Of a DNA stretch of 27,354 nt, positions 5,256 through 7,197 are shown piece after piece (position 1 is the stretch's first letter; every line of letters starts with the position of its first letter). A program made the position numbers and the translations under genes. Under the pieces are notes generated by a model. It was not told the DNA's origin. It saw only the letters and a list, made by a program, of their open reading frames with translations, and made no database searches. This DNA comes from a virus (taxonomy: Duplodnaviria > Heunggongvirae > Uroviricota > Caudoviricetes): positions 1 to 27,354 of IMG/VR virus record IMGVR_UViG_2703719365_000004, one strand, 5' to 3'.

Positions 5256-6008
5256 ATGAACTTTGAAGCCTTACCGAAATATTACTCCCCAAAATCTCCA
5301 AAATTGAGCGATGACGCACCGGCGACAGGCTCTGGTGGTTTAACAATTACGGATGTAATGGCTGCGCAGGGGATGGTGCAGTCGAAAGCACCGCTTGGGT
5401 TTGCCTTATTCCTGGCAAAAGTTGGTGTTCAGGATCCTCAGTTTGCGATTGAAGGTCTGCTCAATTACGCGATGGCACTGGATAACCCGACATTGAACAA
5501 ATTGAGTGAAGAAACCCGGCTACAGATCATTCCTTACCTTGTGAATTTTGCCTTTGCTGATTATTCCAGGTCTGCGGCAAGTAAGGCTCGCTGTGAGCAT
5601 TGTGCTGGTACTGGATTTCATGATGTATTGCGCGAGGTGGTGAAACACTCCAGAAGCGGGGAATCTGTTATCAAGGAAGAGTGGGTGAAGGAACTGTGTC
5701 AGCATTGTCATGGTAAGGGAGAAGTCAGCACAGCGTGCAGAGGGTGTAAGGGTAAAGGTATTGTCCTGGATGAAAAAAGAACCAGGCTTCATGGCACGCC
5801 TGTTTATAAGGTTTGTGGGCGTTGCAATGGAAACCGGTTTAGCCGTTTACCAACCACACTGGCGCGGCTTCATGTCCAGAAGCTGGTACCAGACCTGACG
5901 GATTATCAGTGGTACAAAGGATATGCAGATGTCATTGATAAACTGGTTACAAAGTGCTGGCAGGAAGAAGCGTATGCTGAGACACAATTGAGGAAAGTGA
6001 CGAGATGA
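5256..6008 (+). CDS. Late-gene antitermination protein Q (QuuQ/YdfT-like, with DnaJ-like CxxCxGxG zinc-finger repeats)
   Basis: 250-aa ORF with CEHCAGTG, CQHCHGKG, CRGCKGKG and CGRCNGNR motifs. Located just upstream of a strong promoter-plus-terminator unit and the lysis genes. Confidence 0.8.
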   Translation: MNFEALPKYYSPKSPKLSDDAPATGSGGLTITDVMAAQGMVQSKAPLGFALFLAKVGVQDPQFAIEGLLNYAMALDNPTLNKLSEETRLQIIPYLVNFAFADYSRSAASKARCEHCAGTGFHDVLREVVKHSRSGESVIKEEWVKELCQHCHGKGEVSTACRGCKGKGIVLDEKRTRLHGTPVYKVCGRCNGNRFSRLPTTLARLHVQKLVPDLTDYQWYKGYADVIDKLVTKCWQEEAYAETQLRKVTR

Positions 6009-6037
6009 ATGATTTTCGACGAAAATGGCGACATGAT

Positions 6038-6068
6038 GCTTGCATTTTTCAAAAAAAATGGATAATAT
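6038..6068 (+). promoter_or_regulatory. Putative late promoter PR' (with presumed qut region) downstream of Q
   Basis: -35 TTGCAT, 17-bp spacer (TTTTCAAAAAAAATGGA), -10 TAATAT, about 30 bp after the Q stop codon. An intrinsic terminator follows roughly 50 nt further on. Confidence 0.5.
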
Positions 6069-6113
6069 TTTCTCAATGATAGGCATTGTGTGTCCGGCTT
6101 TAATAAAAAGTAG

Positions 6114-6141
6114 AAAACCCGCTGATGTGCGGGTTTTTTTT
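6114..6141 (+). terminator. Rho-independent terminator (tR'-like) after the PR' leader
   Basis: AAAACCCGC-TGATGT-GCGGG followed by a run of eight T. Confidence 0.65.
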
Positions 6142-6219
6142 CGGAATTTTAGATGTGTGGCATTGAAATGGTATTCGGCGAGTAGGTAGAATTTAAACTT
6201 TCGTCTCGTCTGGATCGAC

Positions 6220-6762
6220 ATGATGTTTCAAGCCTTCCAAACAGCAGTATTTAAAAATGTTGCAGAGTATTTAAAAGGGCGCTTCCCTCATAAGTCGTTA
6301 GGGCTCGTATATGCCGACGAGCTGGTACTAAAAGATATGGAGTTCCTCAAGGCTAACAATAAACTGCGGTGGGATCCCGGACTAAAGTCGCGAGTGTTTA
6401 TGGATATGATGGAAGAACACCCGATAAAACTAGTTGTTTATTATCGTGGGGAGCCTATTGGATTTGCATTTGGGTGTTACTGTAAGCCGAAAAATGCGGT
6501 GCATATTTGCTGGATGGAAAAACGTAATGATGCACATGAAGACCTAGACCATCAGATGCTTGGTATCGTTTTGGATTGCTTCTCTGCATATGCACGATTT
6601 CTGAACCTTCAGGGTGAATCTATTGATTCGATAGCTTTAGTTAGTCCAGTTGATGGGGCAATAAGATACTATACTGAAAGTGGTTTTGAGTACATTGCTG
6701 ATTACGAACGAGGTGGTTGCGCAATGGTGCTTAGGAGCGTTTTACCTAACCAATCAGTGTGA
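6220..6762 (+). CDS. Cargo (moron) protein, GNAT-fold acyltransferase-like, function unknown
   Basis: 180-aa ORF in a visibly AT-rich block. The C-terminus (AIRYYTESGFEYIADYERGGCAMVLRS) resembles the GNAT C-terminal helix/strand and QMLGIV sits where motif A (Q/R-x-x-G-x-G/A) would be. Its own sigma70-like promoter (-35 TTGAAA, 18 bp, -10 TAGAAT) lies at about 6170-6200. No good SD. Confidence 0.6.
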   Translation: MMFQAFQTAVFKNVAEYLKGRFPHKSLGLVYADELVLKDMEFLKANNKLRWDPGLKSRVFMDMMEEHPIKLVVYYRGEPIGFAFGCYCKPKNAVHICWMEKRNDAHEDLDHQMLGIVLDCFSAYARFLNLQGESIDSIALVSPVDGAIRYYTESGFEYIADYERGGCAMVLRSVLPNQSV

Positions 6763-6953
6763 GTTAGATTCTTAATTTCTCCAGAATCATTACAAAAGTA
6801 TTGAAAACCTCTTTTAGTTGATGCAATCTGGATCCACACAAAGCACACACAAAATGTACTACGCTTTACTTTATACATCTTCAGGTAACAAACTTTGTTG
6901 CCTTTATGCTTCAAAGAAGCAACTACAGCTTAGTGCTGAACAAGGGGATTTTT

Positions 6954-7139
6954 ATGAAACATCATGAGCAGATAGAGATTGAGGCAGCTAAAGTCGTCGC
7001 CGAACTCTTTGCTGGCAATGCATCTCCAATGGAAACCTTTGGTATTACATGGAGTCAAACTCAGATGTTAGAGCGTAAGAATCCTGGTGTAGTGATCAAA
7101 CTAGTACCGGATGACGGTAAAAAACTTGCGTATTGCTGA
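6954..7139 (+). CDS. Small hypothetical cargo protein (about 61 aa) co-located with the GNAT-like gene
   Basis: ORF track 6906..7139. The internal ATG at 6954 (MKHHEQIEIE...) has a strong SD (AAGGGGA, about 7 nt spacing). AT-rich codon usage matches the upstream gene. Confidence 0.5.
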   Translation: MKHHEQIEIEAAKVVAELFAGNASPMETFGITWSQTQMLERKNPGVVIKLVPDDGKKLAYC

Positions 7140-7197
7140 TAATTTTTAAAGATTTTTTCAGCTAGAGAATCGATTATTTTACTATAAATCGCGAAGG

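Follow-up and report, generated by a model that had tools for sequence, protein, structure and literature searches.

A mobile two-gene cassette of temperate phages that pairs a predicted, highly divergent GNAT-fold protein with a small downstream partner

The stretch of DNA analysed here, hereafter the window, comprises 27,354 nucleotides (nt) of the virus record IMGVR_UViG_2703719365_000004 (positions 1 to 27,354) and represents an SfV-like prophage of Escherichia coli with a lambdoid early and a myovirus-type late region. Over the 1.3 kb that was probed, the window is 99.8% identical to Escherichia phage vB_EcoM-689R6. Of 5426 complete E. coli genomes, 105 (about 2%) contain the query segment, 98 of these at no less than 99% identity, and many of the carriers are O157:H7 strains. 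Between the antiterminator Q gene and the holin/endolysin genes, this prophage carries a 180-codon open reading frame (ORF; 6220..6762, + strand), which an earlier model-generated interpretation of the letters (the sequence-only reading) had taken for the main cargo gene and for a protein resembling the GCN5-related N-acetyltransferase (GNAT) fold. We find that this gene forms an obligate pair with a small downstream ORF, and that the two genes constitute a mobile, autonomous moron of temperate phages of Gammaproteobacteria. The larger product is predicted to be a genuine, very divergent GNAT-fold protein. The cassette is composed of the following elements:

6141..7401, + strand: the cargo cassette, 39% GC against 53% in the window, with blastn junctions at 6140/7402
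6163..6192, + strand: sigma-70-like promoter candidate of the GNAT-fold gene, TTGAAA-N18-TAGAAT, matching 10/12 positions in a consensus scan
6220..6762, + strand: the GNAT-fold gene
6801..6843, + strand: intergenic box TTGAAA-N15-TGCAAT-CTGGATCCACACAAAG, recognised in alignments, with its promoter-like part at 6801-6827
6883..6903, + strand: stem-loop in the intergenic leader, from a scan for terminator-like structures
6954..7139, + strand: the partner gene, 61 amino acids (aa), phrog_11292 (unknown function)
7194..7222, + strand: strong intrinsic terminator with a 13-bp stem and T-run, closing the transcription unit

Translation of the GNAT-fold gene probably starts at the second ATG (6223), as in its homologues and in the nearly identical phage record, and yields a protein of 179 aa. 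The family comprises 28 clusters at 90% identity, with 36 representatives among 1.84 billion proteins, and the dN/dS values of the gene against relatives with near-saturated synonymous sites are 0.04-0.05. Because of these homologue clusters and the low dN/dS, the ORF is regarded as a real protein-coding gene; with a dN/dS of approximately 0.04 for the partner, purifying selection is strong on both genes of the cassette.

The AlphaFold2 (AF2) model of the larger protein, obtained from 28 homologues (pLDDT 86, pTM 0.84), shows an N-terminal helix and the full GNAT order of secondary structure elements (alpha0-beta1-alpha1-alpha2-beta2-beta3-beta4-alpha3-beta5-alpha4-beta6-beta7). Foldseek comparison with the PDB produced 300 matches at E <= 0.001, and all 50 of the 50 matches listed were GNATs, such as Naa50, RimI, PaiA and Gcn5 (E ~4e-6, TM ~0.5); the same GNAT picture emerged from a search of a viral structure library. 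Profile-profile comparison with a RimI alignment was weak (probability 8.6%, E 0.0039) but colinear. The predicted structure and the matches to solved GNATs bear out the fold that had been proposed from the letters, and the C-terminal segment, read at that time as the GNAT C-terminal helix and strand, is modelled as helix 145-153 and strands 157-159 and 168-172, i.e. alpha4-beta6-beta7, and was also paired by hhalign with alpha4-beta6-beta7 of RimI.

At the level of primary sequence, the protein is phrog_11949, listed in PHROG with unknown function, and the window protein matched 0 families in Pfam/NCBIfam. None of the Pfam GNAT models (clan CL0257) reached threshold in 37 members of the family, the best hit being to PF00583 with an E of 0.11 (2/37 members), and searches of PDB sequences with both cassette proteins (phmmer and profile) returned chance-level matches only. 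Matches to GDP-mannose dehydrogenase (E 0.023) and AhpC (E ~1) were dismissed as chance. With RimI (PDB 5ISV), Naa50 and Gcn5 the cassette protein shares only 10-15% sequence identity, and it is distinguished from them by its extra N-terminal helix (residues 2-21), by the obligatory small partner gene and by the sequence at motif A, which is Q/R-x-x-G-x-G/A in these enzymes and K-R-N-DAHE-D-L-D in the cassette protein.

The helix boundaries of the AF2 model and the hhalign alignment, in which QRQGLG of RimI falls onto KRN-(DAHE)-DLD, agree on the position of motif A: it is occupied by K101-R102-N103, a four-residue insertion DAHE and D108-L109-D110, a segment devoid of glycine and bearing four acidic side chains, with R102-NDAHE-D108 as the beta4-alpha3 loop. 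A departure from the motif A consensus had been noted before at QMLGIV (112-117); the departure itself is confirmed and its placement is not, as helix alpha3 spans residues 108-130 in the model and QMLGIV lies one to two turns inside it, with position 115 being a proline in most mid-distance relatives. Model and alignment thus indicate that the coenzyme A (CoA) pyrophosphate P-loop, motif A, has been lost, and canonical acetyl-CoA binding appears doubtful.

Conservation within the family is sparse. Only Y74 and G85 are invariant in the 37 diverse members, and five more positions (Q7, D39, E100, P143 and G155) reach a conservation of at least 90%. Residue E100 closes strand beta4 at the beta4/beta5 splay, and 90% or more of the members retain it down to approximately 20% identity; in GNATs, this splay is the site of acyl transfer catalysis, and a catalytic role of E100 is plausible. 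Y151 was aligned by hhalign with the catalytic Tyr115 of RimI; more remote members have F, L, W or M there. An EKRxD motif is maintained through the mid-distance clade.

The small partner accompanies the GNAT-fold gene throughout. A homologous ORF of 54-64 aa was found downstream and on the same strand in 47/47 sequences (~22 lineages), namely 38/38 in one set, the distant Vibrio, Aeromonas and metagenome loci and five further loci. These sequences span Enterobacterales, Vibrio, Aeromonas and marine metagenomes and extend down to ~20% identity of the GNAT-fold protein, and the distance between the two genes varies from 87 to 226 nt across loci. The downstream 61-aa ORF, which had been proposed as a counterpart to be co-expressed, has therefore turned out to be a true partner. 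Its conserved core reads VAELFA..SPME.FG..W.Q..LER in the alignment, and its tail usually ends in K/R-x-x-A-x-C (K-K-L-A-Y-C in the window), the C-terminal Cys being missing at four loci (L041, L009, L010 and L038). The AF2 model of the partner is poor (pLDDT 63), with helices at residues 2-20, 25-28 and 33-42 and a low-confidence tail (43-61). The gene is preceded by a strong Shine-Dalgarno (SD) sequence, AAGGGGA (6942-6948). Pfam/NCBIfam searches gave nothing for the window partner, and Pfam gave 0 matches among 24 partner sequences.

Two side observations concern the partner sequence. Its tail (residues 52-61) combines an acidic patch, two to three basic residues, Ala, any residue and a C-terminal Cys (GKKLAYC, GKRRACC, QKTAC), and recalls basic C-terminal motifs recognised by ClpX, e.g. 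that of MuA. A resemblance of residues 7-40 to peptide deformylase, in the part of its C-terminal region at and beyond the HExxH helix, had an E of ~1, i.e. chance level, and was rejected; the only reason for recording it is that N-terminal acetyltransferases head the fold matches of the large protein.

The cassette is framed by the following features outside its borders:

5256..6008, + strand: antiterminator Q gene (Pfam PF03589, E 8e-53)
6114..6141, + strand: intrinsic, tR'-like terminator after Q, with stem CCCGC/GCGGG followed by T8
7402..7711, + strand: 3' remnant of a DNA methyltransferase gene, the right-hand scar, covering only profile positions 156-209 of PF01555

The hairpin of the terminator at 6114..6141 was also found by the scan, listed there on the - strand, and at the corresponding place in SfV the record has a feature for a putative rho-independent terminator. 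The Q region of SfV is 95% identical to that of the window, and Q of SfV precedes orf47 and a methyltransferase gene. Since the homology to SfV (blastn) stops at 6140, within the T-run of the terminator, and resumes at 7402, the segment 6141-7401 represents a replacement cassette that took the place of orf47 of SfV and of about two thirds, from the 5' end, of the SfV gene for a DNA methyltransferase. What is left of the latter are the C-terminal 104 codons, annotated in RefSeq as a pseudogene missing its N-terminus; full-length methyltransferase genes stand at the matching place in SfV and in a Photorhabdus prophage (L009). The DNA common to carriers covers only ~6185-7145 and is narrower than 6141-7401. 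The description of the GNAT-fold gene as the main cargo gene is correct, the low-GC segment being an insertion or replacement relative to SfV in the interval between Q and the lysis genes.

Homology to Stx phages likewise ends in the T-run at 6140. Q and its terminator (5300-6140) are ~94.5% identical to the corresponding region of Stx2c/Stx2k phages (LC727876-LC727890, OQ243220), SfV and mEp460. In phiSTEC1575-Stx2k, with a Q allele ~94.5% identical, the post-Q interval contains tRNA genes and stx2; the same Q allele occurs in 15 Stx2c-converting phage records, in which the content downstream of Q was not inspected. The Q module is common to these phages, and therefore one late-control module drives very different cargo. 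A second moron of the same prophage is iss (increased serum survival, encoding a Bor-like lipoprotein), annotated in RefSeq at ~9150-9443 on the - strand, just past the Rz gene and opposite to it, inside another low-GC stretch (9150-9900).

Beyond the window, the cassette was encountered in a variety of genomic settings. It follows two different Q families and precedes three holin families; other copies are situated past the lysis genes, adjoining a Pyocin_S gene, or near integrases, insertion sequence (IS) elements, HicB-like genes and CAT. Some cassettes sit at prophage ends beside integrase genes, one copy occupies a non-phage chromosomal site near IS elements, and in Aeromonas and Vibrio prophages the cassette is opposite in orientation to the flanking phage genes. 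No third gene was conserved alongside the pair in the contexts examined. Because it possesses a promoter-like site of its own, may be reversed relative to its surroundings and also occurs outside lambdoid late operons, we consider the cassette an autonomous moron, and for the same three reasons its earlier designation as a late phage gene does not hold in that simple form.

In a P2-like prophage of Vibrio vulnificus (L038), the pair is inserted between gpA/ogr and the portal gene. The gpA-portal (gpA-gpQ) interval of P2 is a hotspot of anti-phage defence genes (Rousset et al. 2022, PMC9122126). Two further placements may be recorded. Right after the cassette of a Pragia fontium prophage (L006, 6444-8037), there is a gene for a 433-aa Pyocin_S-domain protein together with a 100-aa ORF, possibly encoding the corresponding immunity protein; the two form another conflict module in the same slot. 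In Erwinia-type lambda-like prophages (L012, 5115-8153; L049, 615-3011), the cassette is located within the tail block, between the K-like (JAB + NlpC/P60) and I-like genes, an unusual site for a moron.

The elements inside the cassette suggest that the two genes may be expressed separately. The promoter candidate at 6163-6192, a consensus match only, would leave a 5' untranslated region of ~20-25 nt, and comparable 10/12 sites lie 5' of the GNAT-fold gene at five other loci (L025, L027, L002, L009 and L010). The intergenic box at 6801-6843, which went unreported by the consensus scan because its spacer is 15 nt, may serve the partner gene as a promoter or operator: its TGATGCAATCTG core hardly varies among 10 lineages despite saturated synonymous sites, and its spacer is constant in length and variable in sequence. 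In the Vibrio and Aeromonas clades (L038, L039), a sigma-70-like promoter matching 10-11/12 positions is predicted directly past the stop codon of the GNAT-fold gene. The stem-loop at 6883-6903 had 86.7% of cells paired against at most 44% in slid registers, with three pairs changed on both sides, which amounts to modest support from five sequences; a hairpin followed by T7-8 separates the two genes in L006, L047 and L049. The box and the stem-loop could together form a promoter and an attenuated leader of ~120 nt for the partner, or could give rise to a small RNA of ~50 nt. An Rfam scan of 5900-7500 yielded only sub-threshold matches, on the tR' terminator. Terminators equivalent to that at 7194-7222 are found 3' of the partner gene in L002, L006, L038, L047 and L049.

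Ribosome-binding sites also differ between the two genes. In the E. coli clade, the SD strength is -7.6 kcal/mol for the partner against -3.1 kcal/mol for the GNAT-fold gene (GGA only), and the GNAT-fold genes of Pragia, Aeromonas and the metagenomes have strong SDs. The sequence-only reading had found no obvious SD and suspected a leaderless or weakly translated message. The first point is roughly right for the E. coli clade and does not extend to the family as a whole; a leaderless message is not indicated, as use of the promoter-like site at 6163-6192 would give the transcript a leader.

Two repeats were noticed in this region. A perfect 12-nt inverted repeat (CATGATGTTTCA / TGAAACATCATG) has one arm at the start codon of each gene (6219-6230 and 6955-6966); as a regulatory pairing it was rejected, because it is unconserved beyond the nearest relative, and it is probably due to chance. 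A direct repeat (TCTGGATCGACA at 6209-6220 and TCTGGATCCACA at 6827-6838) is shared between the ribosome-binding region of the GNAT-fold gene and the intergenic box, and may be coincidental or an operator common to both.

Comparison with characterised systems did not place the cassette in any of them. Membership in the tRNA-acetylating GNAT toxins, a class to which attention had been drawn earlier, was rejected for TacT-TacA, AtaT-AtaR, KacT-KacA and ItaT-ItaR because gene order, antitoxin type and CoA motif all fail: in those systems, a ribbon-helix-helix (RHH; DUF1778) antitoxin is encoded upstream in one operon and the toxin has a canonical acetyl-CoA site, whereas in the cassette the partner is downstream, separated by 87-226 nt and without a Pfam match, and motif A is absent from the larger protein. 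Toxin-first toxin-antitoxin (TA) modules with an extra dedicated promoter for the antitoxin are exemplified by rnlAB and mqsRA. The cassette resembles these in its gene order, putative effector before small partner, and in the independent promoter-like element and stronger ribosome-binding site of the latter, but shows no sequence or fold relation to them and has a much longer spacer that contains a hairpin or terminator.

The cassette is also reminiscent of anti-phage hotspot cargo and of lambdoid Q-S morons (e.g. stx), being small, low in GC, apparently self-promoted (judging from its promoter-like sites), terminator-bounded and found in the same slots. It differs from known hotspot defence cargo in that neither of its proteins matches any of the 5027 models of PADLOC-DB v2 at E <= 1. 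Literature searches returned nothing on the cassette protein family, and the only GNAT defence gene that they retrieved, integron Brc113, has a canonical GNAT domain.

GNAT-fold transferases that use acyl-acyl carrier protein (acyl-ACP) or aminoacyl-tRNA (the LuxI, HlyC and Fem families) in many cases have no motif A. The cassette protein scores no better against HlyC/ApxC, LuxI/FeeM and FemX than against ordinary GNATs and differs from them in its conserved residues, and no ACP, LuxR or RTX-toxin gene was found near the cassette. A test for ribosomally synthesised and post-translationally modified peptides (RiPPs) detected no NHLP/Nif11 leader in the 24 partner sequences (Pfam) and no export or processing genes in the contexts examined. 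In Pfam/NCBIfam, the GNAT-fold protein has no sequence relation to resistance or O-antigen acetyltransferase families.

Our favoured, though tentative, reading, to which we assign somewhat less than an even chance, is that the pair is a conflict module, either TA-like or acting in abortive infection or defence. It is favoured because the two genes are always paired, the partner seems to be expressed separately and more strongly, and the cassette, small and bounded, has been captured repeatedly in accessory or defence hotspots; its mobility and the strong purifying selection on both genes are further points in favour. Separate expression of the partner is suggested by its promoter-like box, the promoters predicted in L038 and L039, the hairpins between the genes and the asymmetry of the SDs. 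In such a module, the GNAT-fold protein would be the effector and would transfer an acyl group to a target of the cell or of a phage, the donor possibly not being acetyl-CoA. The small protein would be produced independently and in surplus, and would restrain or regulate the effector, perhaps through its Lys-x-x-Ala-x-Cys tail placed in the acceptor cleft. In the lysogen, the cassette's own promoter could drive its expression; after induction, Q-dependent read-through of the upstream terminator could do so as well. The full version of this proposal, a new two-gene phage-borne conflict system in which a P-loop-less GNAT-fold effector is restrained by a separately transcribed small Lys/Cys-tailed protein, we consider rather unlikely to be correct in every part; under it, the CoA P-loop has been discarded and another acyl donor or chemistry would therefore be expected.

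Several observations weigh against a conflict module. Neither protein is homologous to a characterised toxin, antitoxin or defence protein in Pfam, NCBIfam or PADLOC, and both the gap of 87-226 nt and the inter-gene terminators are unusual for type II TA operons. The partner model is of poor quality (pLDDT 63), which leaves the placement of the tail in the cleft speculative. A weakly translated effector had to be rejected as a trait of the family, being confined to the E. coli clade, and the hotspot position is circumstantial, as such slots also hold virulence or metabolic cargo, e.g. stx and iss. Finally, distant members do not retain the general-acid Tyr (Y151). There is no conserved catalytic pair to point to, and the protein may therefore not be an enzyme at all.

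That last point leads to the alternative of a pseudo-enzyme, in which the GNAT fold would serve as a binding scaffold without acyl transfer and, together with the small protein, would sequester or sense a host or phage factor. The replacement of the P-loop by an acidic, glycine-free segment with a four-residue insertion speaks for it, as do the scarcity of strongly conserved positions (two invariant and five at 90% or above), the unconserved canonical Tyr and the failure of every Pfam GNAT model to reach threshold in the 37 members (best E 0.11). We nonetheless think this unlikely: E100, at the end of beta4 where catalysis takes place in GNATs, persists in 90% or more of the members down to ~20% identity, EKRxD is kept through the mid-distance clade and the whole protein is under strong purifying selection; many true GNAT-fold transferases, such as LuxI, HlyC and Fem, also do without motif A. 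If the protein is a transferase, its acceptor might be the small protein itself, acylated on the C-terminal tail (Lys or Cys) or at the N-terminus, an enzyme-substrate relationship that we hold to be quite improbable; no better prospects are given to its possible outcome, a RiPP-like maturation or the activation of a pro-protein by acylation, as by HlyC or the selidamide GNATs. The strict co-occurrence of the pair would fit, together with the conserved, leader-like N-terminal region of the partner, its more variable tail with the recurrent K/R..A.C motif and low-confidence prediction, and the Pyocin_S gene adjoining one locus. Yet in the contexts examined the pair is not accompanied by genes for transport, proteolysis or immunity, the partner has neither a signal or double-glycine leader nor a Pfam NHLP/Nif11 match, the C-terminal Cys is absent at the four loci named above, and separate promoter-like sites and terminators are atypical of a precursor-maturase operon.

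We give little credence to two further explanations. As an ordinary lysogenic-conversion acetyltransferase, the protein would act in the conventional way with acetyl-CoA on an antibiotic, a metabolite or a surface component; the small ORF would then have no tie to it beyond proximity, or only a minor regulatory role. The GNAT fold itself, the alignment of Y151 with Tyr115 of RimI in this clade and the CAT gene adjoining the cassette at one locus are compatible with such a function, and SfV-type phages are known for serotype-converting cargo; set against this are the absence of motif A, the linkage of the small ORF in 47/47 sequences from ~22 lineages and the lack of relationship to the resistance and O-antigen acetyltransferase families in Pfam/NCBIfam. 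A late function of benefit to the phage, e.g. an anti-defence or host-takeover factor produced in lytic growth by Q read-through from PR', would suit the position of the cassette in the window and many relatives, where it lies on the late strand, follows Q and its terminator immediately and precedes the lysis genes. Such a function is hardly to be expected of a cassette that has promoter-like sites of its own, is reversed against the flanking phage genes in Aeromonas and Vibrio prophages, has a copy near IS elements in a non-phage chromosomal context and has others at prophage ends beside integrase genes.

The cassette defines a protein family and a partner family that are recognised by no curated library and are both of unknown function in PHROG, and it provides annotators with a fold assignment and a diagnostic two-gene signature. 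Should the larger protein be only an odd acetyltransferase, the cassette would be a routine moron. If the conflict-module reading is true and the pair acts in defence or as a TA system, the GNAT fold without a CoA loop would represent a new effector chemistry for prophage immunity, and a function would be gained for a cassette that occupies the Stx-equivalent slot of an SfV-like prophage present in 98-105 of the 5426 complete E. coli genomes, with many O157:H7 among them.

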